A stretch of 60,790 nucleotides of DNA from a virus (taxonomy: Duplodnaviria; Caudoviricetes), in IMG/VR virus record IMGVR_UViG_3300044984_001645, positions 1-60,790 of that record; one strand, 5' to 3'. Position 1 is the stretch's first letter. Each line of letters opens with the position of its first letter. A program made the translations under genes and the position numbers. The notes under the pieces are model-generated. The model saw only the letters and a list, made by a program, of their open reading frames with translations, did no database searches and was not told the DNA's origin. Below are positions 8,372 to 56,125 of the stretch, one piece after another.

Positions 8372-8654
8372 CTGGAAGAGAAATGCACTCTGTGCGAGCG
8401 ATCCTAAACAGTACACTTGGTGGTCTTATGATAAAGACGACATTGCTTATGCAAAACAAGGTTGTTCTCGTTGCTCGGTTCGTAGAGAGTGCTTTCTTTC
8501 AGCTTGGGAATCAGATGAATTCTATGGTATCAATGGTGGAATCTCAGAGTTTGAGTTTCTATTAAGAACATGGAAGAAATCAAAAAAGGAATCCAATGTT
8601 AACTGGAAAAAAACTGATAGAGATCTTCAAAAAATCATGCGAGAAATCGCATAA
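8355..8654 (+). CDS. whiB: WhiB-family transcription factor (variant)
   Basis: W...ALC...AKQGCSRCSVRREC...YGINGG: four Cys plus turn motif. Confidence 0.8.
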   Translation: MALASNWKRNALCASDPKQYTWWSYDKDDIAYAKQGCSRCSVRRECFLSAWESDEFYGINGGISEFEFLLRTWKKSKKESNVNWKKTDRDLQKIMREIA

Positions 8655-17590: not shown

Positions 17591-18643
17591 TTGAAGCTGT
17601 CATTGCACACAGACCAGTTTGTTAAGGATGCGAACGGCAAGTCCGGTTATTCGTATAGTTACTACAAAATGATTGAACATTTCTCTAAGTTTACTTATAG
17701 GAATGAAAAGATGACAATCCTTGATAATTCAAGTGAAGCAAATGCTCAGTTGTTTTATATGGAGCCTGAACGGTACAACCATCACAATATGCAGAACTTG
17801 CGTAGCCCTGATTTTATAAAATTTCATGATAATCAATACAAGATACAGGGAACGCATTTGGAGGCTACAAAGGTATGGGATCATTGGATTGATGCAATGA
17901 ATCGTGTGGATGAGATATGGGTTGGAAATTATTTTGCACAAGACGCTGTTATCAATTCCGGAATCACAACCCCAACATATGTTTTTGAAATGGGAATTGA
18001 CGATATGTGGAAGCCTTACAAAAGAGGTGAAAACAGAAAGATAAAATTCTTGCATATTGACTCAGCAAGTCCTCGTAAGAGAGCTGACATGGCACAGGCT
18101 GCTTTTTCTAAAGCATTTCAGGGCAGGCATGATGTGTCTTTAACTTTGAAATACCACGGTAATGAGAATACAGAAGGATTTGGCATATCGTCAATGCTAA
18201 TACCTCGTCATGACAATATTACTTACATTCACGAAACTCTATCCCAAGAGGATATGATTAAGCTTTACTATGATCATGATGTTTTGATCTACCCTAGCGA
18301 GGGTGAGGGCTTTGGTTTTATTCCCCTACAAGCCCTTGCTACTGGAATGCCGGTTATTTCAACAGGCTTATGGTGCTCTTATAAAGATCTCTTGGGTAGA
18401 AATATTATAGATGCTAAATTAGGCAAGACGCAGAATACTGGGTACACCTGTGGAGATGTTGTCCTTCCTGAAATTGATTCTTTAATTTATTTGATGAGAA
18501 GAGTGGTGGATAATTTTGATGATGAAGTAAATTATTATTTCAATCAAGCGCCATCTGTTTATGACAGGTATAATTGGCAAACGAGATGCGATGCATTTCT
18601 TAAGTCTGTGGTTAAAAGACTTGGCACAAAAACTTTCAACTAA
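17591..18643 (+). CDS. Glycosyltransferase family 4 (GT-B)
   Basis: RK, DVLIYPSEGEGFGFIPLQALATGMPVI. Confidence 0.9.
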   Translation: MKLSLHTDQFVKDANGKSGYSYSYYKMIEHFSKFTYRNEKMTILDNSSEANAQLFYMEPERYNHHNMQNLRSPDFIKFHDNQYKIQGTHLEATKVWDHWIDAMNRVDEIWVGNYFAQDAVINSGITTPTYVFEMGIDDMWKPYKRGENRKIKFLHIDSASPRKRADMAQAAFSKAFQGRHDVSLTLKYHGNENTEGFGISSMLIPRHDNITYIHETLSQEDMIKLYYDHDVLIYPSEGEGFGFIPLQALATGMPVISTGLWCSYKDLLGRNIIDAKLGKTQNTGYTCGDVVLPEIDSLIYLMRRVVDNFDDEVNYYFNQAPSVYDRYNWQTRCDAFLKSVVKRLGTKTFN

Positions 18644-18669: not shown

Positions 18670-19602
18670 ATGCTAGTAGTAGATAAAAGAAAAGGCGACC
18701 ATATGCCTATTCATGAGGTTATTCCAACACCAAGTATCGGTTTGAATCGTGCGCTTGGGGGAGGGCTTAACTCAGGGGCAACCCATTTGTTCTGGGGAAC
18801 ACCATCAGTTGGTAAAACAACAATGTGTTTCCGGATTCTTGCGGAAGCTCAAAGACGAGGATACCGACCAGTCATCATTGACTCGGAGTATTCTTACAAT
18901 GATCAATATGCTGCCAAGTGCGGTATCAATATTGATGATGTTGTTGTAATTCAATCAACAATTGTAGAAGAGATTATGAAGGCTCTCATTGGTTATTTGA
19001 ATAACGATGTTGAGAAGCACATCTTTTTGTTTGACTCCCTGTCAAATATCATCAAAGAAGAGTTTTATGACAAGCCAGAAGGTGGTAAAGCAATGGGGCT
19101 TCAATCTCGTTCGCAGGGCTACCTTCTCCAGAAGCTTGTTAATTACCTTCACAAGGAACGGAACATCATGCTATTCGTAGCACACCAGACCGTTGATCTT
19201 AGTGGAATGTTCGCTGTGACAAAGGCGAAGATGGGTAACACAGTGCATCATAATATGCACAACATTGTAAAACTGTTCCTCTCAATGTCTCAAAAGGAAA
19301 TGGAGCGTGATGACACTCACACCATTACCTCACAGAGGGCTGTGTGGACAATTGAAAAGACAAAACAGATTCCAACTATCGGTGCGCAAGGTTATTACTA
19401 TGTTCTTCCACAAGAGGGAAAGATTGATACTGACCGGGAGCTTATTGATATTGCGGTTGAGATGGATATCATTCAACGCAGAGGTGCATGGTATTCCTAT
19501 GGCACTGAGAAGTGGAACGGAATGACAGCTATTAATTTGTCTGAAGAAGTAAGAGATGAAATTGCAACTTTGATCTTGGGTCGTGAGTTTCAAGAGGTGT
19601 AA
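18670..19602 (+). CDS. recA: RecA/UvsX-like recombinase
   Basis: LNRALGGG, GTPSVGKTT, IDSE, FDSL, IIQRRGAWYSYG. Confidence 0.9.
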   Translation: MLVVDKRKGDHMPIHEVIPTPSIGLNRALGGGLNSGATHLFWGTPSVGKTTMCFRILAEAQRRGYRPVIIDSEYSYNDQYAAKCGINIDDVVVIQSTIVEEIMKALIGYLNNDVEKHIFLFDSLSNIIKEEFYDKPEGGKAMGLQSRSQGYLLQKLVNYLHKERNIMLFVAHQTVDLSGMFAVTKAKMGNTVHHNMHNIVKLFLSMSQKEMERDDTHTITSQRAVWTIEKTKQIPTIGAQGYYYVLPQEGKIDTDRELIDIAVEMDIIQRRGAWYSYGTEKWNGMTAINLSEEVRDEIATLILGREFQEV

Positions 19603-24004: not shown

Positions 24005-25072
24005 ATGGAGCTTGTATGGAATGGCACAAGTGTTGCCCAAGTCCGTAATGAAGGTTACAAGGTAGCCGAGGATGAAATCTACAATCGTCTAATCCTAATG
24101 GGTGTTGAGATAGATCGTGATTGCATCATGCCATCAGATCTCAAGCCTATGGCAGAGGTTGGTATTGGTATTCAATATCAATCAGAATGTTATGACCATG
24201 TAGGTTACGATGTTTTAATTAATAATCGACTCCCTCTTGATTACGCAATGTGTAGTGGATACAATGTTGGCTTTTCATACTGGGAAACAACACGCTTGCC
24301 CGAAGACTGGGTAAGGCGTATGAATATGATGGATGAAATCTGGACAACATCATCATGGGCTAAAGATGTATTTATAAGTTCCGGAGTTAGTGTTCCCACT
24401 TATAATTTTGATCTCGGAGTTGATTCAAGATACTTCTTTCCTGTGAAGAGGACTCTTAAATCTCAACCGTTTACCTTCCTTAGCATCGGTTCTCCATCTA
24501 CCAGAAAGAACAGTCAGCTCGCTGTTGATGCGTTTGTAAAGCTCTTTGGGGATGATGACAGATACAAGCTTCTTTATAAGAGCGTGGACTCTCCTGACGC
24601 ACGATTGTGGAACGGTAGAGGTGAGCCTTCTGCTATCAGTAATCATCCGAATATTGAAATCATTGAAGATGATGTTTCAATTGAGGAACTGGCTTCAATT
24701 TATGATCGTGCAGACTGCCTCATCTACCCCACGAGCGGTGAGGGTTGGGGAATGCTGCCTTTCCAAGCTATCGCAAAAGGTATTCCAACCATCTGCACCA
24801 ACGCTACAGCCTGCACTGAGTATGCCAGTATGTCTGTGCCTCTTGATTTTAAATGGGGAACAAACAAGATGTCCGGCATCTATGGTGAGTGTGGTGAATG
24901 GGCAGAGCCAAATTTTGATGATTTATGTGATAAAATGTTATATGTAATTAATAATTATGATGAAGTTTCTAACTTCACATATAACAATGCAGTTATCAAT
25001 CAAGATAGATGGTCTTGGGGTACTGTTGCGAAAGGCTATTACGACAGATTATGTCAGATATTGAACCAATAA
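24005..25072 (+). CDS. Glycosyltransferase family 4 (GT-B)
   Basis: WETT, RKN, DCLIYPTSGEGWGMLPFQAIAKGIPTI. Confidence 0.9.
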   Translation: MELVWNGTSVAQVRNEGYKVAEDEIYNRLILMGVEIDRDCIMPSDLKPMAEVGIGIQYQSECYDHVGYDVLINNRLPLDYAMCSGYNVGFSYWETTRLPEDWVRRMNMMDEIWTTSSWAKDVFISSGVSVPTYNFDLGVDSRYFFPVKRTLKSQPFTFLSIGSPSTRKNSQLAVDAFVKLFGDDDRYKLLYKSVDSPDARLWNGRGEPSAISNHPNIEIIEDDVSIEELASIYDRADCLIYPTSGEGWGMLPFQAIAKGIPTICTNATACTEYASMSVPLDFKWGTNKMSGIYGECGEWAEPNFDDLCDKMLYVINNYDEVSNFTYNNAVINQDRWSWGTVAKGYYDRLCQILNQ

Positions 25073-36070: not shown

Positions 36071-36424
36071 ATGCCAACAATTACAATTAATTGGTTAGAT
36101 GAAGCTGCTTGTTTAGGACAAGGAGCACATTTATTTTATGCCGATACTGTTTATACAGCAGAAACAAAAAAGATCATAGCCAAAGCAAAAACATTTTGTA
36201 AAAGCTGTCCTGTTGTTGCTGATTGCTTACAGTATTCAATTAACAATGATGAAAGGTTTGGGGTTTGGGGTTCTTTTTCTTCAAAAGAAAGAGCATCAAT
36301 CCGAAATCATTTGAAAACCAATGAGATAACAAAAGGACAAGCCGAAGCAATGGTTAATAAAACAGTATTGCAAGTAAAAGATGCATTCAGAAATACAATA
36401 TTCGTGGAGGGTAATAATGCCTGA
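36071..36424 (+). CDS. whiB: WhiB-family transcription factor
   Basis: WLDEAAC...AKTFCKSCPVVADCLQYS...ERFGVWGS...ER. Confidence 0.92.
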   Translation: MPTITINWLDEAACLGQGAHLFYADTVYTAETKKIIAKAKTFCKSCPVVADCLQYSINNDERFGVWGSFSSKERASIRNHLKTNEITKGQAEAMVNKTVLQVKDAFRNTIFVEGNNA

Positions 36425-49672: not shown

Positions 49673-49718
49673 AAAAGCCTTAGAGGTAAGTTAAATCTTA
49701 TCTTTAGGGCTTTTTTTT
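49673..49718 (+). terminator. Intrinsic terminator ending the + strand block
   Basis: AAAAGCCTTAGAGGTAAG...CTTATCTTTAGGGCTTTT plus T run. Confidence 0.75.
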
Positions 49719-49803
49719 GTGCCTAAAATTAGCATAAAGTAAAGAATAATCGTTGATTTTGTGCAATTATTAGCCAAAAACATGCTATTTTGTATCAAAA
49801 CAT

Positions 49804-49817
49804 AGAACATATGTTCG
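49804..49817. promoter_or_regulatory. LexA (SOS/Cheo-type) box candidate
   Basis: AGAAC-ATAT-GTTCG vs consensus CGAAC-N4-GTTCG. Confidence 0.5.
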
Positions 49818-50498
49818 TATCATGTGGATAACTTCGGATATGTACTAAAATTAAGGTTAAAGTTAAAGAAAAACAGCCTACATTGATGAGCGGAATACAT
49901 ATTCCCTATCTATCTTCTATCTATATCCCTATCTAGAAGCTAAGACAATACCTAACCCGGAACTTTGCGGGAAAAGCTCATATCTTGAGACGAGATAAGA
50001 CCCCCTTACCCTATTTATATCTCTAGGGATAAAGTAAATAACAATATTAGAAGGTATATACCCCGATAGTTAATGTGTTAGGGAATTAGGTAGAGAATGT
50101 GATAGTAGGTAACCCAAATGCCGGCGATAATAATGCGAAAGTTACGGGGTTGTAATTTGAATTGGTTAATCTCCTATATAGAGAGAGATACACCTAGGGG
50201 AATAGATAAACCAATAGCCCCGCCTAACTCCTCAGACCTCATAATTTGAAAGGGATACTGATCCCTTACCCTTATCTTAAAAGTAAATTGAAATTTAAAG
50301 ATAATAGTAGAGAGTTTCATCATGATTGGTAAATACATTAAATTAATATGAAAGATAAAGTTAAATTTAATTGGTGTCCAAAATGCTAAAGCATTTATGG
50401 TACCCCAACCATAATTTGAAACCTATAGTAGTCCCTTACCGTATAGGTATCGTTTGGAGAATGTATTAAATTAATAATAAAGATAAAGGTAAACGAAA

Positions 50499-50535
50499 CT
50501 GGTGTTCAAGTGCTTTAGCACGCCCAGAACACCAG
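50499..50535. repeat. Inter-cassette hairpin H0
   Basis: CTGGTGTTC-AA-GTGC-TTTA-GCAC-GCCCA-GAACACCAG. Confidence 0.8.
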
Positions 50536-50546
50536 CGATTTTGGGC

Positions 50547-50577
50547 AAAAAAAAAGGTACCCTTTCGGGTACCTTTT
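50547..50577 (-). terminator. Intrinsic terminator, cassette 1
   Basis: - strand GGTACCC-GAAA-GGGTACC plus U9. Confidence 0.85.
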
Positions 50578-50609
50578 CTAAAATCCTTTCGATTTTAATT
50601 TAACTTTCG

Positions 50610-50960
50610 TTAAGCATTCGCCTTACGAGAGATTACCATTTGACCATTATCCAACCAATTAATTTGGATTTCAATTCCCAATTTCTCGGAAACACTTTCG
50701 GCACGATTTCGGTATCGCATTTTGTCGGCTTGGACTTTGGTTTGTTCCTGATTAAGGTTTACCGTAGCCTCACTCCAAATGAATGCGTCACCGATTTCGT
50801 TCGGGTCAAGTGACAAAATATCCGTTGCCAAAACTGGGTTTTCGTATGGAGGTTTTCCACGCTTAACCAATTTGGATTGGATTTCGGAAAGGTTAATTTT
50901 GACATTAACCTTTTTTGACGGGTCGCCTGCGTTATCGCTCGGCTTAGTGGTGTTACTCAC
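50610..50960 (-). CDS. Cassette 1 ORF: small protein, paralog of cassette 2 (leaderless GTG start)
   Basis: LVKRGKPPYENPVLATDILSLDP identical to ORF 51271; GTG 6 nt after the -10. Confidence 0.8.
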   Translation of the reverse strand: MSNTTKPSDNAGDPSKKVNVKINLSEIQSKLVKRGKPPYENPVLATDILSLDPNEIGDAFIWSEATVNLNQEQTKVQADKMRYRNRAESVSEKLGIEIQINWLDNGQMVISRKANA

Positions 50961-50966
50961 ATACAT

Positions 50967-50998
50967 ATAATACTCATGGCTTGAAACTATGTATTAAA
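50967..50998 (-). promoter_or_regulatory. Cassette promoter P1
   Basis: TTTAAT-acatagtttcaagccatgag-TATTAT. Confidence 0.75.
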
Positions 50999-51156
50999 TA
51001 ATGCCATATATTAGACCCTGAACGGCGGGCGCACGAGTTCTGCTGAAGCTCCCCGCACGCCCGCCATGATTTGAATAGTATTTTGAGACACTACGGGGTT
51101 CCTTACCATGATTTGGAAATGTGAGTGAAATTTTATTCATAGCTACACCGGTAGAA

Positions 51157-51195
51157 GCTGGCGTTCAAGTGCTTTAGCACGACCCGAACGCCAGC
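51157..51195. repeat. Inter-cassette hairpin H1b
   Basis: GCTGGCGTTC-AA-GTGC-TTTA-GCAC-GACCC-GAACGCCAGC; compensatory change relative to H0. Confidence 0.8.
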
Positions 51196-51205
51196 GATTT
51201 TGGAT

Positions 51206-51234
51206 AAAAAAAAAGCCCGCCCCGAAGGGCGAGC
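51206..51234 (-). terminator. Intrinsic terminator, cassette 2
   Basis: UUCG-loop stem plus U9 on - strand. Confidence 0.8.
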
Positions 51235-51270
51235 CATAAAAAGCCTTCCGACTTTTTTATTGGGGGGATA

Positions 51271-51615
51271 TTATTGAGGTGAGCCGAGCGAGATAATCAT
51301 CTGCCCGTCATCTTGCCAGTTGATAGCGATAACGATACCGCACTTCTCAGCAACGCTGAGGGCACGATTACGGTACTTCATCTTCTCTGCCTGAACCTTG
51401 TCCTGTGGCGCTGTGAGGTTCACAGTCGCTTCTGACCAGTAGAAGGCATCGCCCTCAACTGTTGGGTCAAGTGAGAGAATATCAGTCGCTAGGACTGGGT
51501 TCTCATAGGGGGGCTTGCCTCGCTTGACGAGATTAGCCTTTATGCTATTTAGGTTCACCTTTTTATTGGTGCTGGTTGTCGGTTCCGCTTTGCGGTCACC
51601 TGTGCTTGTTGCCAT
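51271..51615 (-). CDS. Cassette 2 ORF: small protein, paralog of cassette 1 (leaderless ATG)
   Basis: Strong similarity to ORF 50610; ATG 6 nt after the -10. Confidence 0.82.
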   Translation of the reverse strand: MATSTGDRKAEPTTSTNKKVNLNSIKANLVKRGKPPYENPVLATDILSLDPTVEGDAFYWSEATVNLTAPQDKVQAEKMKYRNRALSVAEKCGIVIAINWQDDGQMIISLGSPQ

Positions 51616-51621
51616 ATAGAT

Positions 51622-51653
51622 ATAATACTGATGCCTTCCGAATATGTATTCAA
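51622..51653 (-). promoter_or_regulatory. Cassette promoter P2
   Basis: TTGAAT-acatattcggaaggcatcag-TATTAT. Confidence 0.8.
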
Positions 51654-51790
51654 TATGGGAATATATTAGACCCAGTTTGGCTGGTGCTTAAGTGAGCTGA
51701 AGCTCCCCCGCACACCAGACATTTCCGGGATCATGAGACCATGTACTCAATTTCGTCATAAAGGCTTTCCATGTAGGAGTGGTGTTAGGC

Positions 51791-51827
51791 AAAAAAAAAG
51801 GAGGAGGTCTTGCGACCCCCTCCCTTT
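51791..51827 (-). terminator. Intrinsic terminator, cassette 3
   Basis: GCAA-loop stem plus U9 on - strand. Confidence 0.8.
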
Positions 51828-51839
51828 CGGAGTGTGTGC

Positions 51840-52235
51840 CTAGGCTATGGCTAGGAACTCAACGATTGCCTGTGAGTAAAGGTGACCCTCTACCTTCATG
51901 TGTTCGCCTAGCAATGCTTCGGCATCTCTCACTGCTGGTAGCAATGTCTCCTGAATGGTGAACAATGTCTCGTAGTAGGTAGCCTTCGTGACTGTCTCGC
52001 TATCGTCACGGGTCACTGTCGTGATGACCGTCTGAGTAGCGTCTAGGAGTGTGTCTCCTACTGTTCGGGCTTGTTCTAGGAAGAACATATAATTGTCTCC
52101 TGAGTCGTGGTCAGATTGAATCATGACCTTAATGAATGCCTTAGTGAATATCTCCACGAAGGTGTTGAGTGTGCTAGAGAACACATTCAGACTAAGTATC
52201 TGAACTGGCTCGCAGGGTTCAAGTAGTGGTTCCAA
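51840..52235 (-). CDS. Cassette 3 ORF: hypothetical protein
   Basis: RBS GAAAGG then TTG at 52235. Confidence 0.7.
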   Translation of the reverse strand: MEPLLEPCEPVQILSLNVFSSTLNTFVEIFTKAFIKVMIQSDHDSGDNYMFFLEQARTVGDTLLDATQTVITTVTRDDSETVTKATYYETLFTIQETLLPAVRDAEALLGEHMKVEGHLYSQAIVEFLAIA

Positions 52236-52279
52236 TGTTACCTTTCCGCAGTTCGTTAGTTCACTGCTTCCATACATAC

Positions 52280-52311
52280 ATAATACATATGCCTTTAGAA
52301 TATGTATTTAA
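52280..52311 (-). promoter_or_regulatory. Cassette promoter P3
   Basis: TTAAAT-acatattctaaaggcatatg-TATTAT. Confidence 0.75.
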
Positions 52312-52390
52312 TTTGGGAATATATCCATACGCTGTTCGTTTGGTGTGAAAGGGGACTTAAGATCCCCTGCACTCCAACGATTTCATAGGC

Positions 52391-52424
52391 AAAGAAAAAG
52401 GGCAGGTACCGAAGTACCTGCCCT
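52391..52424 (-). terminator. Intrinsic terminator, cassette 4
   Basis: GGGCAGGTAC-UUCG-GTACCTGCCC plus U tract. Confidence 0.85.
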
Positions 52425-52438
52425 CATCTTGGGGGTTG

Positions 52439-52744
52439 TTACAGATGACCGTAACGATGACCCTTCTCACGCTCGGGTTCATTGTAATGACGGACTGGCA
52501 AGATAACCCGAGGCTCATTCTTATGTTCAGTATGACCCTCAAGGCATTGCTGGCACTCACACACGATTGTGTAGCGTGTGTACATCTCCAACTGGCGGAG
52601 TGTGAAGTATGTCTGGTCTTCAAAGTCCTTCCAGCCGAGTATCTTCATGATACGCAAGGCATGGCTAAGTCCCCTCTTATCTATGACACGCATTTGCCAG
52701 TAGGTATCCCAACCATCGGGCAATTGCTGATACATCATTCTCAT
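52439..52744 (-). CDS. Cassette 4 ORF: hypothetical protein (CECQQC)
   Basis: RBS GAAAGGA. Confidence 0.72.
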   Translation of the reverse strand: MRMMYQQLPDGWDTYWQMRVIDKRGLSHALRIMKILGWKDFEDQTYFTLRQLEMYTRYTIVCECQQCLEGHTEHKNEPRVILPVRHYNEPEREKGHRYGHL

Positions 52745-52791
52745 GTGTTCCTTTCATTGTGGGCTACTTGGGTTTCACCCTCACTAACAAT

Positions 52792-52823
52792 ATAATACCC
52801 ATGCCTTTGGAATATGTATTCAA
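52792..52823 (-). promoter_or_regulatory. Cassette promoter P4
   Basis: TTGAAT-acatattccaaaggcatggg-TATTAT. Confidence 0.8.
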
Positions 52824-52901
52824 TATGAGAGTATCCCTACACCGTGTTCGTTTGGTGTAAAAGGGGGCTAAACCCCCCTCGTGCACCAACGAAATCAGGG
52901 C

Positions 52902-52935
52902 AAACAAAAAGGGCAGGTACCGAAGTACCTGCCCT
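52902..52935 (-). terminator. Intrinsic terminator, cassette 5
   Basis: Stem-loop identical to the cassette 4 terminator. Confidence 0.85.
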
Positions 52936-52948
52936 GATTGCTGGGGGT

Positions 52949-53164
52949 CTAACCGTAGATTTCTTCAATCAACGAATCGTATGTGTTGTTTGCGATGAGA
53001 ATGTATGTCTCAAACAGTACCCAGTGAGTCTGGTTCTTCATCGCCTCAAGGAACTTGAAGAACAACTCTTCATAGTCCCCGATGGCTAGGGTGCTCTGGA
53101 GAGTTGTAAGAAGTTCTGTGTACCTCTTATCGACTTGTTCTTTCATGTCTGTCGTTATTTCCAT
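52949..53164 (-). CDS. Cassette 5 ORF: acidic hypothetical protein
   Basis: RBS GAAAGG. Confidence 0.72.
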   Translation of the reverse strand: MEITTDMKEQVDKRYTELLTTLQSTLAIGDYEELFFKFLEAMKNQTHWVLFETYILIANNTYDSLIEEIYG

Positions 53165-53208
53165 TATTACCTTTCGGATAGTTACTTGGGTTTCACTACC
53201 ACATCTAT

Positions 53209-53240
53209 ATCATACTGATGGCTTTAGAATATGTATTCAA
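53209..53240 (-). promoter_or_regulatory. Cassette promoter P5
   Basis: TTGAAT-acatattctaaagccatcag-TATGAT. Confidence 0.8.
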
Positions 53241-53331
53241 TTTGAGAATATACCCATATCATGTTCGTTTGGTGTGAAAGGGCTTAAGCTCACCCTCGCA
53301 CTCCAACGATTTCAGCTTCATAAATAAAGGC

Positions 53332-53363
53332 AAAAAAAAAGAGCCAGCCCGAAGGCTGACTCT
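53332..53363 (-). terminator. Intrinsic terminator, cassette 6
   Basis: UUCG-loop stem plus U9. Confidence 0.8.
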
Positions 53364-53383
53364 CTTTCTTGGGGGGTGTGTGA

Positions 53384-53659
53384 CTACACGAACTCAGGGT
53401 ACATGTAGTGTTTGTCAGGGTAGCACTTGTAGGCACCGTTCATCTTGAACCGAGGGTACCAGCAGATGCCCCATGTCTGCGCCCACTTCTGTGCGAGGTT
53501 GTGGGCTTGCTGTGCATTGACACATGGGATAGTCAGGATGTGACTGTCTGAGGAGTCTCCCGTAGGCGATGACATCACTATGACTACATGAAACTCATGA
53601 GCCTCAATGTGGTTAGGTGTCCCAGCGTAAACGCTAGGTGGTTGTGTTGAGTAGGACAT
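53384..53659 (-). CDS. Cassette 6 ORF: hypothetical protein (alternative in-frame leaderless start at 53701)
   Basis: RBS GAAAGG before ATG 53659; SSPTGDSSDSHI motif. Confidence 0.72.
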   Translation of the reverse strand: MSYSTQPPSVYAGTPNHIEAHEFHVVIVMSSPTGDSSDSHILTIPCVNAQQAHNLAQKWAQTWGICWYPRFKMNGAYKCYPDKHYMYPEFV

Positions 53660-53707
53660 GGTGCCTTTCCAGCCCGTCAGTTGTTCGGGGCTTGCTTCCA
53701 TGTCTAT

Positions 53708-53739
53708 ATAATACTGAAGGCTTAGATATATGTATTCAA
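53708..53739 (-). promoter_or_regulatory. Cassette promoter P6
   Basis: TTGAAT-acatatatctaagccttcag-TATTAT. Confidence 0.8.
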
Positions 53740-53763
53740 TGTGAGAATGTATAGACCCCTCAC

Positions 53764-53807
53764 ACGCTGGAGTTAAAGAAAGCTTAAGCTTTCCAGTACT
53801 CCAGCGT
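53764..53807. repeat. Inter-cassette hairpin H6
   Basis: ACGCTGGAGT-TAAA-GAAAGCTTAAGCTTTC-CAGT-ACTCCAGCGT. Confidence 0.85.
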
Positions 53808-53822
53808 TTTCATTAGGGGCAC

Positions 53823-53848
53823 AAAAAAGGCACCCCCGAAGGGGTGCC
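53823..53848 (-). terminator. Intrinsic terminator, cassette 7
   Basis: GGCACCCC-UUCG-GGGGTGCC plus U6. Confidence 0.8.
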
Positions 53849-53862
53849 CATTTGTTTGCGTT

Positions 53863-54135
53863 CTATCTCTTTTCGTATTTGTCGGAGAAGTGAAGTCCAA
53901 GCCCTACGAATAAGCCTAACGAACCTACGCTACACACTACCCATAGGATAGCCGACCAGTTGGAAGTGGTGTCCATACCTTGAAGGTACCATGTAGGTGC
54001 TAGTGCACTTGTCGGAGCAAGTACCATACAGATAGTGCTCATCAAGCCTAACTCTGTGAAGGAAAGGAATAAGGCGACTAGGGCAGTTCCTAGAACGAAG
54101 GCGGATATTACAGCGAGCACGATATATGTCATCAT
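53863..54135 (-). CDS. Cassette 7 ORF: small membrane protein (about 3 TM segments)
   Basis: RBS GAAAGG; three hydrophobic stretches. Confidence 0.75.
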   Translation of the reverse strand: MMTYIVLAVISAFVLGTALVALFLSFTELGLMSTICMVLAPTSALAPTWYLQGMDTTSNWSAILWVVCSVGSLGLFVGLGLHFSDKYEKR

Positions 54136-54181
54136 GATTGCCTTTCTACGAAAGTTACTTGGGGTTCACTTCCATATCTAT

Positions 54182-54213
54182 ATAGTACCTATGGCTTGAA
54201 TATATGTATTCAA
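54182..54213 (-). promoter_or_regulatory. Cassette promoter P7
   Basis: TTGAAT-acatatattcaagccatagg-TACTAT. Confidence 0.8.
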
Positions 54214-54451
54214 TAAATGAAATATATGAGTCCCTACACTGCGGGCGTAAAGCGTAAGCTTAAGCTGTGCACACCCGCCATTGACTCACCAAACAGAGGA
54301 AAACGAAAAACAAAAAAAAGACGCAGTAGCATGCTACGAATATATACTCAAATTTTCTAAAAAACGGGGTCGGCTGCAAGTGCCGGGTTTTGGTTTAGAA
54401 AACGGGGGAGATGGGGGTTGAATGGGGATTGCTGCTAGAGCGGAGCTGCTG

Positions 54452-54524
54452 CTCCCAGAGTAGGGCTTGAACCTACGACACACGGATTAACAGTCCGTTG
54501 CTCTGCCAACTGAGCTATCTGGGA
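54452..54524 (-). tRNA. tRNA-Asn(GTT)
   Basis: TCCCAGA acceptor, AGCTCAGTTGGCAGAGC D-arm, ACGGA-CTGTTAA-TCCGT, GTAGG-TTCAAGC-CCTAC. Confidence 0.93.
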
Positions 54525-55346: not shown

Positions 55347-55565
55347 TTATTCATTATCTCTATTATACCAATGCGATTCACGATATCTCTTCGTGCCGTT
55401 GATATTTGATATTGTTTGCGCAATCTTGCGATGCCGGCGATTCCGTGACCACAAGCTATTGCTAAACCATGAGGAAACAGCCACATACCCGGCATAACCC
55501 ATGCACAATACTGCAAACCACCTTGTTATCAGTACATAGTATCTTTCGGGTGCCACCTTGGTCAT
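55347..55565 (-). CDS. Small membrane protein
   Basis: One hydrophobic segment; coupled to the oxygenase gene. Confidence 0.5.
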   Translation of the reverse strand: MTKVAPERYYVLITRWFAVLCMGYAGYVAVSSWFSNSLWSRNRRHRKIAQTISNINGTKRYRESHWYNRDNE

Positions 55566-56125
55566 GCCGGTCCCTCATCTGGGAGGAAGTTTATGTTTAT
55601 TGCAAATCTAAAAGGACTCAATACCGGATTACTTCCCGCATGGAGGATCTGTCCATCAAACACAACCGCCGTTCCCTTTTTGGGGTCTACTTCTTTTATA
55701 ACATTTAGGTCATCATCATAGAAGTATGTAGGACCGTCTGAGTCGTTCACATAGTACAGACAGACAAGGTGTGGAACCAAACTGCCATCCTCTAGTTTTA
55801 AATCAGTGTGTGGTGTCTGAGGGCTGCACCGAGATGGGTTTGGCATCGTGACATTGACCTTTGCTCGATACAACCGGATGTCTCCATGCTTATCCTGAAT
55901 AGAATTGATTATTGGCAATACAACAGGAAGATTCGGGGACTGTTTTTCTTCCCCCATCATAAAGAGATGATTGGTTAGTTGTTTACCGGAAGAGGATGAG
56001 CTGCCAGTTTCTAATGGATCGTTATGAATATTTTGAAAACGGTAAGGGAATGCGTTGCTAGAGACAAACTCTTCAATTAGGTTTTGATCCTTAAGTGGTA
56101 TGAAGTTTTCAAAAATATCTATCAT
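55562..56125 (-). CDS. 2OG-Fe(II) oxygenase
   Basis: PHTD, LYYVNDSDGPT, FDGQILHAG, RFAININF. Confidence 0.88.
   Translation of the reverse strand: MIDIFENFIPLKDQNLIEEFVSSNAFPYRFQNIHNDPLETGSSSSSGKQLTNHLFMMGEEKQSPNLPVVLPIINSIQDKHGDIRLYRAKVNVTMPNPSRCSPQTPHTDLKLEDGSLVPHLVCLYYVNDSDGPTYFYDDDLNVIKEVDPKKGTAVVFDGQILHAGSNPVLSPFRFAININFLPDEGPA

Follow-up and report, generated by a model that had tools for sequence, protein, structure and literature searches.

The host-takeover module of the Bacillus phage SPO1 is a dense cluster of small genes, mostly of unassigned function, arranged as many short transcription units with a strong promoter and a terminator each; it is located within the terminal redundancy, and experiments have established that it is expressed early. 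To our knowledge, neither a conserved hairpin nor boundary-mediated exchange of cargo has been described for it. Integron cassettes are likewise arrays of single genes, bounded by imperfect hairpins that are used on one strand and are conserved at the base but variable at the top; their cargo is highly variable, and one common promoter serves the array.

The promoter-early stem-loop (PeSL) of T4-type phages is a repeated intergenic composite with the stem-loop just upstream of the promoter (PMC2839356). PeSLs are tied to ORFans in the hyperplastic region, and the ends of indels and replacements between close relatives fall in the motifs (PMC2839356; PMC4122927). The SAS/ESAS repeats of Cluster K mycobacteriophages are confined to non-structural genes in one orientation; the ESAS consists of imperfect inverted repeats of about 17 bp, interrupted by a short spacer and with a consensus that varies by sub-lineage, and it adjoins the upstream side of the 13-bp start-associated sequence found at start codons (PMC3203893; PMC12699233).

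Genomic setting

The array described here lies in record IMGVR_UViG_3300044984_001645, a 60.8-kb fragment of an uncultured freshwater actinophage of about 100 kb from lake water; the whole stretch of 60,790 nt is called the window. The record carries two WhiB genes, a DnaE-type polymerase and a UvsX-like recombinase. The host is taken to be actinobacterial, because WhiB occurs twice in the window and also in 5/5 relatives, and the control of the WhiB search matched only in Corynebacterium. The array contains 45.4% G+C against 37.4% in the remainder of the record, in agreement with the higher G+C noticed in the first-pass annotation. Its 5′ anchor, which precedes the array in relatives as well, is a tRNA gene:

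54451..54524, minus strand, tRNA-Asn(GTT), just upstream of the array (ARAGORN; Rfam tRNA, 68.9 bits)

Three metagenome contigs with the array are 99.8–99.9% identical to one another, and in each of 24 runs 64% or more of the words sampled from the array region are present; the array is therefore no assembly artefact. No RNA run was found to contain the region.

Architecture of the array

The array occupies positions 50368–54284 on the minus strand and comprises seven small ORFs, each with a 65-nt promoter/leader repeat before it and a tetraloop terminator after it, which bears out the seven one-gene units of fixed part order first read from the letters. The repeat search (family D1) returned seven minus-strand copies of the 65-nt unit at intervals of 655, 658, 512, 417, 499 and 474 bp, compared with the about 480–660 bp originally given.

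54150..54214, minus strand, promoter-like box, -10-like hexamer and 5′ leader 7, which begins with a 6-codon mini-ORF (D1 copy, alignment)
53676..53740, minus strand, promoter-like box and leader 6 (D1 copy)
53177..53241, minus strand, promoter-like box and leader 5 (D1 reference copy)
52760..52824, minus strand, promoter-like box and leader 4 (D1 copy)
52248..52312, minus strand, promoter-like box and leader 3 (D1 copy)
51590..51654, minus strand, promoter-like box 2, with the c2 ATG 6 nt past the -10-like hexamer (leaderless; D1 copy)
50935..50999, minus strand, promoter-like box 1, with a GTG at 50960, 6 nt past the -10-like hexamer (D1 copy)

A 20-nt core motif, AATACATATNNNNAAGSCAT, has ten matches in the window at up to 3 mismatches, a number expected to be 2.0 ± 1.4 by chance and reached in 0/100 shuffles. 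Seven of them are the array copies, all on the minus strand with 0–1 mismatch, and the other three carry 3 mismatches. The promoter had been written as TTGAAT...TATTAT; each hexamer is present in five of the seven units, with TTAAAT and TTTAAT once each in the remaining boxes and TACTAT and TATGAT once each at the -10-like position, 20 nt from TTGAAT. A sigma-70-like promoter scan of the window called 0/7 boxes (14 sites found, 16.5 ± 4.8 expected), and judged by its sequence the box is no canonical sigma-70 promoter. It may be a regulator site, because it is 13–16 nt long and genome-specific, far longer than a -35 element, and because many relatives have another copy of it, lacking a -10, on the upstream side of the hairpin. 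An ATG or GTG lies 6–8 nt past the -10-like hexamer in 7/7 window units and in most units of the relatives, which fits leaderless starts.

The terminator scan of the window listed 16 terminator-like sites, where shuffles gave 4.9 ± 1.9, and six of the seven array terminators are among them; T1 was missed, but when folded it forms a 12-bp stem with a T run behind it. Reading and folding give the same loop counts (five UUCG, one GAAA, one GCAA), and the identity noted between the terminators of cassettes 4 and 5 is confirmed as a common 26-nt hairpin (repeat I1).

53828..53849, minus strand, terminator T7, UUCG loop and T run (scan, fold)
53333..53370, minus strand, terminator T6, UUCG (scan, fold)
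52910..52935, minus strand, terminator T5, UUCG, identical to T4 (scan, repeat I1)
52398..52425, minus strand, terminator T4, UUCG (scan)
51795..51828, minus strand, terminator T3, GCAA (scan, fold)
51214..51235, minus strand, terminator T2, UUCG (scan, fold)
50547..50577, minus strand, terminator T1, GAAA loop, 9 T (read by eye, folded)

The cargo genes are the following:

53863..54135, minus strand, c7, 90 aa, gravy 1.04
53384..53701, minus strand, c6, 105 aa (leaderless ATG) or 91 aa (ATG at 53659, following GAAAGG)
52949..53164, minus strand, c5, 71 aa, acidic, pI 4.3
52439..52744, minus strand, c4, 101 aa, C-terminal half Cys-rich
51840..52277, minus strand, c3, 145 aa as listed, acidic, pI 4.3
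51271..51615, minus strand, c2, 114 aa, family F1
50610..50966, minus strand, c1, 118 aa as listed, family F1

The hydrophobic c7 is probably a small membrane protein, c3 probably has 131 aa from a TTG at 52235 behind GAAAGG, and c1 probably has 116 aa from the GTG at 50960. The kinship of c1 and c2 suspected earlier amounts to 63–66% identity. No cargo ORF found a match in Pfam, PHROG, fold and Atlas searches, and a Foldseek search with F1 gave 0 matches at E <= 0.001 and no recognisable DNA-binding fold. The shared cargo genes are real and under purifying selection, their dN/dS values ranging from 0.08 to 0.34: 0.08 for c2 and 0.09 for c1 against strain G012, 0.11–0.20 for c3, which is retained in strains G012 and V3, and about 0.34 for c7, whose V3 homologue is 69.6% identical. 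Only 15 homologues of c3 were found, all at least 77% identical; c4 has a distant homologue in G012 (27% identity, E 3.7e-6), and c5 is absent from G012 and V3.

The conserved hairpin

A hairpin of about 44 nt (model R1) was located at ten sites of the 60.8-kb record, all within 50368–54284. One lies ahead of each promoter-like box, an extra one directly after T2 and T1, and one at the end, which replaces the earlier count of one per cassette.

54239..54284, minus strand, hairpin H7 (R1 E 2.2e-5; fold -17.7 kcal/mol)
53764..53807, minus strand, hairpin H6 (R1 E 1.6e-10)
53266..53309, minus strand, hairpin H5 (R1 E 7.2e-9)
52849..52892, minus strand, hairpin H4 (R1 E 8.3e-9)
52337..52380, minus strand, hairpin H3 (R1 E 1.7e-9)
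51678..51721, minus strand, hairpin H2, with half a promoter box, ATTGAGTACAT, ahead of it (R1 E 1.5e-12)
51155..51197, minus strand, second-type hairpin with loop GCTAAAGC, directly after T2 (R1 E 2.1e-11; repeat D6)
51023..51066, minus strand, hairpin H1 (R1 E 3.4e-9)
50496..50538, minus strand, second-type hairpin directly after T1 (R1 E 1.1e-10)
50368..50411, minus strand, terminal A+T-rich hairpin behind a decayed cargo-less box, the 3′ end of the array (R1 E 3.4e-8)

The terminal unit, with its A+T-rich hairpin, decayed box and no cargo, is also present in relatives. In the aligned hairpins 92.9% of cells are paired against 86.4 ± 0.8 in shuffles, with 24–41% in slid controls, and there are 28 double changes against 9.1 in shuffles, both values being reached in 0/500 shuffles; the sense strand, on which G.U pairs occur, is the more stable in 39/43 copies, and as the 43 copies are akin to each other, the strand and covariation statistics overstate their independence. 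Because of the covariation and the better folding on the sense strand, the hairpin probably acts as a single strand, likely as RNA. The sense-strand selection with G.U pairs also makes it doubtful that the hairpin is untranscribed, as had been supposed. Its foot (GG.G ... C.CC) is invariant in 43/43 copies and its top is variable; the conserved foot argues for recognition by a protein over mere stability. The hairpin has no U run and sits behind strong terminators, so little read-through RNA is expected there.

Conserved boundaries and exchanged cargo in relatives

Nine relative arrays keep the architecture and differ in cassette number and cargo. Of 15 larger records searched with R1, six gave matches, each confined to a single stretch of 4–6 kb, which indicates one array per genome, and nine gave none. 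In at least one of these nine, G009, there is an analogous array whose hairpin has diverged and whose boundaries contain many copies of a perfect 12-bp palindrome, a form typical of operators. In each genome compared, all units have a box sequence peculiar to that genome, which points to concerted evolution. The 85 sense ORFs of eight arrays comprise 9 shared families and 50 singletons; ORF calling in the relatives was crude, probably admitting some spurious short ORFs and overlooking some GTG starts. F1 is the only family in all eight, always at the 3′ end. Almost no cargo is shared by relatives beyond about 80% polymerase identity.

Three strains with 85–90% identical flanks have the orders c7-c6-c5-c4-c3-c2-c1, c7-X-c3-Y-c2-c1 and A-B-c3-D-c2-c1, so that the c3-c2 junction exists in three states (nothing, Y or D). 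At the position of c6, the two close strains hold an unrelated A/X family between a near-identical leader 6 and terminator 6, the latter being 93.8% identical around the unrelated cargos. In a second lineage (G011 and L190), the break lies about 100 nt behind the first hairpin, and the two differ by 2 against 3 cassettes. Among close relatives, homology breaks in the leader, the terminator or the inter-cassette spacer. Exchange of cargo through the conserved boundaries, as first suggested, is thus supported by these comparisons: close relatives differ by whole cassettes with breaks inside persisting boundaries, rather than sharing identical cargo without boundary breaks.

Proposed mechanism and alternatives

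It had been stated that the window contains no recombinase gene. This holds for site-specific enzymes, a tyrosine recombinase being found in 0/7 records (control 14/14) and a Y1 transposase in 0/7 (control 6/14), but not for general recombination, for which exonuclease and SSB genes are present besides a candidate enzyme:

18670..19602, plus strand, UvsX/RecA-like recombinase, candidate for homologous exchange (phrog_97, E 6.4e-39)

We propose, with a probability of about 70%, that the locus is a hypervariable accessory array of self-contained units whose boundaries serve as portable homology for cargo exchange. Each unit consists of the hairpin, the promoter-like box with its -10-like hexamer, a start region, an ORFan cargo and a strong intrinsic terminator; in the start region, either the start codon coincides with the predicted start of transcription or a conserved leader carries the Shine-Dalgarno sequence GAAAGG. 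The boxes would be promoters for the host polymerase, and the units would be transcribed independently. General homologous recombination between the repeated boundaries, by the phage UvsX-like recombinase or host RecA, would delete, insert or replace whole cargos within one genome or between co-infecting relatives, and the same process would keep the boundaries of one genome alike by concerted evolution. The hairpin may act as RNA in read-through transcripts, where, like the PeSL stem-loop, it could be an attenuator, an insulator or a processing site, and the cargo may serve host takeover or counter-defence.

Hairpin and box might instead be double-stranded or extruded DNA sites at which a phage regulator, for which the F1 protein of the array or a WhiB-like factor would be a candidate, switches the whole array; the hairpin would then be no RNA element, and shuffling a by-product of repeated operator/promoter sequences. 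This is consistent with the invariant foot below a varying top, the long genome-specific box with its second copy upstream of the hairpin, the palindromes of G009, the retention of F1 alone in all eight arrays and the strong terminators ahead of the hairpin. However, a duplex site does not need the variable mid-stem to stay paired by covariation, G.U pairs and stability favour one strand, and F1 shows no recognisable DNA-binding fold. We regard this explanation as unlikely, though the most serious competitor.

An ordinary cluster of small early genes, with similar promoters and terminators kept by function alone and with differences due to indels and divergence in which the boundaries have no role, is improbable. 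Small-gene clusters with similar promoters are common in phages, and fast divergence could account for the near-absence of shared cargo among the more distant relatives. It does not explain the three states of one junction, unrelated proteins inside one conserved leader/terminator frame, boundary breaks in two lineages, box sequences changing in concert within genomes, or cargo that is absent or unrelated despite 85–90% identical flanks.

A shade less probable still is a recombinase-driven system in which the hairpin is a single-strand recombination site (cf. integron attC or the REP/IS200 hairpin) where a phage protein captures and excises cassettes: the foot and top, the strict single orientation, the strand bias, the hairpin at each cassette boundary and whole-unit indels with breaks between terminator and hairpin suit it, but the two enzyme types were not found in the seven records, attC-like core sites occur in 0/43 hairpins, and cargo replacements also break off the hairpin, at the start codon and just past the stop codon, which fits homologous exchange in leader and terminator and not a cut at the hairpin.

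Comparison with known systems

The array resembles integrons in its single-gene cassettes, bounded by imperfect hairpins whose base is conserved while the top varies, and in its variable cargo. In contrast to integrons, it has no integrase (tyrosine recombinase in 0/7 records) and no attC core site in its hairpins, each unit has its own predicted promoter and its terminator instead of one common promoter, and breakpoints fall beyond the hairpin too. With SAS/ESAS it shares actinophage repeats restricted to non-structural genes, one orientation, an imperfect inverted repeat and a lineage-specific consensus; however, about 70 nt separate the hairpin here from the predicted transcription start downstream of it, the window has 0 matches to the SAS consensus at <=2 mismatches, and ESAS sites are spread across half a genome whereas these form one array. 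Like the SPO1 module, the locus is a dense small-gene cluster of short units, each with a predicted promoter and terminator; SPO1 differs in its place in the terminal redundancy and its experimental early timing, the present array being known from sequence.

The closest known system is the PeSL cassettes of T4-type phages. Both systems combine a repeated stem-loop and promoter composite with ORFan cargo and with exchange ends in the motifs, and both have a UvsX-type recombination system and no dedicated site-specific recombinase. As the stem-loop of a PeSL immediately precedes the promoter (PMC2839356), the hairpin and promoter module is the equivalent of the PeSL; the hairpin had been considered an addition to the PeSL scheme, but the extra part here is the cargo-linked intrinsic terminator. 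The present array differs in its unrelated lineage and host (DnaE-type polymerase, WhiB genes, actinobacterial host), in a box without the sigma-70 consensus, in a tetraloop terminator for each cargo, in a stem-loop that shows covariation, keeps its foot conserved and lacks G/C tracts, in the arrangement of all units in one array and one orientation, and in a conserved 5′ leader or leaderless start that belongs to the module. The PeSL principle of T4-type phages would thus be present in an unrelated phage lineage.

Genomic setting and host

The window is a linear virus contig, a fragment with no terminal overlap and no end repeats, and its completeness was estimated at 58%. Its plus-strand genes, which run to 49.7 kb, encode tail-fibre-like proteins, a DnaB-like helicase, a DnaE-type polymerase and a large terminase; a primase, an SSB, an exonuclease and a UvsX-like recombinase are also encoded. 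A block of minus-strand genes spans 60.4 to 50.6 kb. The features of the window outside the array are as follows.

8373-8552, plus strand: WhiB-family gene
17591-18643 and 24005-25072, plus strand: two glycosyltransferase-like genes (phrog_2170) in the replication region
36092-36298, plus strand: WhiB-family gene
49673-49714, plus strand: hairpin of 18 pairs between A and T runs at the end of the plus-strand genes, facing the array and kept in relatives
55562-56125, minus strand: protein with disagreeing labels, DNA endonuclease V in PHROG (phrog_274) versus 2OG-Fe(II) oxygenase superfamily in Pfam

Two WhiB-family genes were likewise present in each of five related records (5/5), and among the controls this family was matched in Corynebacterium only. 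This identifies the host as an actinobacterium. Among deposited phages the DnaE-type polymerase has its best matches in Streptomyces phages, at no more than 38% identity, the sequencing runs containing this DNA are lake-water metagenomes, and the relatives in IMG/VR reach 100-109 kb. Taken together with the WhiB genes, these observations lead us to read the window as a fragment of an uncultured freshwater actinophage of ~100 kb. Sigma-70 region 2 was found in none of the five related records (control 10/14); the T7-type RNA polymerase family also gave 0/5, with a control that matched nowhere either, so that this second result has no evidence value. The hairpin at 49673-49714 probably terminates transcription from both directions where the plus-strand genes and the array converge, and the phrog_2170 genes may serve DNA or cell-wall modification.

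Architecture of the cassettes

The first-pass annotation had described recurring one-gene cassettes on the minus strand, closed by tetraloop terminators and richer in G+C than their neighbours, and each of these points was recovered. A 65-nt unit occurs seven times at a spacing of 417-658 bp. Behind each cargo ORF (from c7 at the 5′ end to c1 at the 3′ end) stands a tetraloop hairpin with 9-17 pairs (loop UUCG in five, GCAA and GAAA in one each) and a T run, six of the seven being listed by the terminator scan and the seventh confirmed by folding. The G+C content of the array is 45.4%, compared with 37.4% for the rest of the record. A 20-nt core was found with 0-1 mismatch at the seven array places only, and the observed total of 10 matches was reached by none of 100 shuffles.

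Alignment of eight inter-ORF regions gives a fixed order: stop codon, terminator with its T run, a further hairpin, ~25 nt, a conserved promoter-like box, a -10-like hexamer and the start codon. The box reads ATTGAATACATAT..AAGSCAT and is followed by the -10-like TATTAT, with ATG or GTG 6-8 nt downstream. In c2, c1 and possibly c6, this start codon opens the cargo ORF itself, which would make these genes leaderless. In c7, c5, c4 and c3, the start codon at the same position opens a mini-ORF of 5-6 codons within a conserved leader, which terminates in GAAAGG and is followed by the real start. The four mini-ORFs begin at the predicted transcription start.

54173-54153, minus strand: leader mini-ORF MEVNPK
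53199-53179, minus strand: leader mini-ORF MVVKPK
52780-52760, minus strand: leader mini-ORF MRVKPK
52273-52256, minus strand: leader mini-ORF MEAVN

Such leaderless mini-ORFs could be translated in an actinobacterium and could tune the downstream cargo. A sigma-70 scan called none of the seven sites, and the TTGA lies 20 nt from the -10-like hexamer; by these criteria the box does not look like a canonical sigma-70 promoter. It is known that -35 elements are weak in Actinobacteria. None of the runs listed as containing the region is an RNA run, so that promoter use, termination and timing of the units are inferred.

An A+T-rich non-coding stretch (49730-50500) separates the array from the plus-strand genes that converge on it. 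Two decayed box-plus-hairpin units that lack cargo are found there, together with three copies of a motif GGTAAGGGA..TTTCAAAT(T/C)ATGG that adjoin the 5′ foot of a hairpin. The stretch may be a relic of the array or a zone in which the array grows, or may carry a second kind of signal. A conserved motif downstream of stop codons, CCCCCAA, was rejected as a possible junction signal, being present at only 15 of 62 cargo ORFs and often forming part of the terminator stem.

Cargo proteins

None of the seven cargos belongs to a PHROG or Pfam family, and the searches made returned no family, fold or Atlas match for the cargo proteins, with no usable ESM Atlas match for c3. The structure predicted for F1, the protein family of c1 and c2, is confident (pLDDT 84.5), and Foldseek found no PDB match to this model at E ≤ 0.001. 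The protein c7 looks like a small membrane protein, and c5 and c3 are strongly acidic. The dN/dS values of shared cargo are 0.08-0.34; shared cargo is under purifying selection. The GC3 of the cargo in the window is 0.44-0.63, versus 0.26-0.44 in five backbone genes, and the G+C content of the array exceeds that of the flanks in all six relatives measured (0.42-0.56 versus 0.34-0.38; loci L185, L186, L187, L189, L191 and L194). Codon adaptation for early expression and a separate gene pool are both possible sources of this elevation.

Cargo turnover among relatives

Comparison of relatives bears out the proposal that cargo varies while boundaries persist, since the window differs by whole cassettes from two close relatives, G012 and V3, as do G011 and L190 from each other. 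The flanks of the array in G012 are 86-90% identical to those of the window, and this strain retains the tRNA-Asn, the first hairpin with its box, and the cargos c3, c2 and c1. It is without c7, c6 and c5, and it has a new cargo A, a unit B of two ORFs, the first of them distantly related to c4, and an extra F1-like unit D between c3 and c2. In V3, represented by three metagenome contigs that are mutually 99.8-99.9% identical, the order is c7-X-c3-Y-c2-c1. The junction between c3 and c2 thus exists in three states: nothing in the window, Y in V3 and D in G012. The cargos X and A are homologous (40% identity, E 3e-13), and both are unrelated to c6; all three are framed by near-identical copies of leader 6 and terminator 6, the latter 93.8% identical. 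In this replacement, homology stops at the start codon and restarts just past the stop codon. A second lineage shows a break as well: G011 and L190, 88-91% identical to either side of it, part ~100 nt behind the first hairpin, where they carry two and three cassettes, respectively, and different ones.

The 85 sense ORFs of eight arrays comprise 9 shared families plus 50 singletons, counts that are approximate because ORF calling in the relatives was crude. F1 is the sole family present in all eight arrays, always as the last two or three units. Cargo Y of V3 (171 aa; L198 3124-3639) has the N-terminal KKVNL motif of F1 proteins and is otherwise unrelated to them; possibly it arose as a chimera within an F1 gene. 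In G003 and G005 (L185 and L186), many cargo terminators are G+C-rich hairpins without a T run, a form common in Actinobacteria.

An assembly artefact was rejected, as the array is present in independent contigs and runs. Among 50,697 phage records, blastn detected none that matches the array. In IMG/VR, the exact promoter motif was found in 94 stretches, and each of the 80 listed holds one match, which was taken as chance; the hairpin pattern was found in 115 stretches, nearly all of them single chance matches, and led to no records beyond those already known.

Probable exchange between boundaries

The turnover described above fits homologous exchange between the repeated regulatory boundaries, for which the UvsX-like recombinase, the exonuclease and the SSB encoded in the window could provide the machinery. 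It had been noted earlier that no recombinase lies in the window. This does not hold for the UvsX-like protein. It stands for dedicated enzymes: tyrosine recombinase (PF00589; control 14/14) and Y1 transposase (control 6/14) were each found in none of seven related records (completeness ≥90% in five of them). The breaks are located in the leader, terminator and spacer, not at one hairpin point. Contigs assembled from four DNA runs (Logan) break at array boundaries, and in the same runs there is a co-occurring variant of c4, ~89% identical, with different flanks. Contig joints that go back or skip fall in the repeated boundaries with sides of 30-34 nt; they are ambiguous and were counted neither for nor against circles.

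The box sequence is genome-specific and the same across all units of one genome (TTGAATACATAT in the window and TTTTAGTGCAT in G003), and across genomes the distance between box and -10-like hexamer stays constant, as does the foot of the hairpin. Such homogenisation within a genome would be the expected product of frequent exchange between boundaries; alternatively, the genome-specific boxes would come from co-evolution with a regulator encoded by each genome. Another relative, G009, carries in the corresponding position behind tRNA-Asn an array of analogous build, with six hairpins in which the foot is unchanged and the top different, and it has no match to R1, the covariance model of the hairpin. 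Its boundaries (L192 8500-13700) contain many copies of a perfect 12-bp palindrome, TGTAATATTACA, and of its variants, which look like operators.

The conserved hairpin

The model R1 was built from 43 hairpin copies of five genomes. In the window it matches 10 sites, every one of which lies within 50368-54284 and scores better on the minus strand; the remaining 57 kb contain none. Among whole related records, 6 of the 15 searched have matches, confined to one stretch of 4-6 kb per record. The model matched none of 40 fragmentary relatives (16-54 kb), an uninformative result because these fragments probably stop short of the array, which lies ~35 kb from the polymerase gene.

The foot of the hairpin, GG.G ... 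C.CC, is invariant, and three foot pairs covary (CG 25 / UA 11; UA 36 / GC 5; UA 19 / CG 12). Paired cells amount to 92.9%, compared with 86.4 ± 0.8 in shuffles (reached by 0 of 500) and 24-41% with a slid partner, and the sense strand is the more stable in 39 of 43 copies (means -21.9 versus -18.1 kcal/mol), since nearly all G·U pairs are on this strand; the copies are related, so that these pairing and strand figures overstate their independence. The pattern points to selection on the hairpin as a single strand of coding sense, most simply RNA, or else single-stranded DNA.

As an RNA, the hairpin could be an attenuator or a processing site; it has no U run, and in Rfam it matches no family, only the tRNA being above threshold. 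It could also be the site of a regulator. It could, finally, be a recombination site; attC-like cores were found in none of the 43 copies. A more specific and rather improbable proposal is that the hairpin is the recognition site of a protein encoded by the array, with F1 as the candidate, the pair forming a self-contained system for control or mobilisation of single-gene expression units without a known recombinase. The invariant foot and the strict sense-strand bias speak for it, as does the fact that F1, the only cargo common to every array, always stands in 2-3 copies beside a second hairpin type. If it were true, F1 and the hairpin would be a phage counterpart of the integron, built on a new protein-hairpin pair.

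Comparison with known systems

SPO1-type host-takeover modules lie in the terminal redundancy and are expressed early. The present array is a defined hot spot for the entry of new ORFans and therefore a natural place to seek host-takeover or counter-defence genes; its units, which would be compact and insulated expression cassettes for Actinobacteria, could serve as genetic parts. A limited literature search found no paper on such an array in actinophages.

Integrons differ from the array. Their cassettes are promoterless and depend on one common promoter, whereas every array unit has its own box and terminator, and no tyrosine recombinase (IntI) is encoded in the seven related records. The attC cores of integrons, RYYYAAC and GTTRRRY, are likewise missing from all 43 hairpins.

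In its size, its orientation and a consensus that differs between lineages, the hairpin is similar to the ESAS repeats of Cluster K mycobacteriophages. Published accounts place these inverted repeats at start codons, directly upstream of the 13-bp SAS, and give their function as unknown (PMC3203893; PMC12699233). The window hairpin, in contrast, lies upstream of the promoter-like box and not at a start codon, and the SAS consensus has no match in the window at ≤2 mismatches. Like the ESAS repeats, it suggests that gene control in actinophages has a layer not yet understood.

By analogy, the closest known system is the PeSL cassettes of T4-type phages. According to two reports (PMC2839356; PMC4122927), a PeSL consists of a stem-loop and a strong early promoter and lies beside ORFans in hyperplastic regions; it brings about indels and replacements and yields mini-circles, all without a dedicated recombinase. 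The first-pass annotation regarded the hairpin as an addition foreign to such systems, a view we abandon, because the hairpin-plus-box module corresponds to the PeSL. The composite of stem-loop and then promoter recurs here as seven promoter-like boxes, each behind a conserved hairpin; 50 of the 85 array ORFs are singletons, in line with the ORFan association in a hyperplastic region; and the indels and replacements between close relatives (window/G012/V3 and G011/L190) end in the motifs. The window array departs from the PeSL in that each cargo is linked to a tetraloop terminator, the start is leaderless or preceded by a conserved leader, the foot of the hairpin is conserved, and all units form a single array in a single orientation. 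The phage itself, with its DnaE-type polymerase and WhiB genes, is not a T4-type myovirus, and the array is therefore an analogue of the PeSL system, not a member of it. The reshuffling of accessory genes by way of regulatory boundaries that are portable, documented so far in T4-type phages, would thus not be peculiar to them, and would operate also in an unrelated and abundant group of freshwater actinophages.
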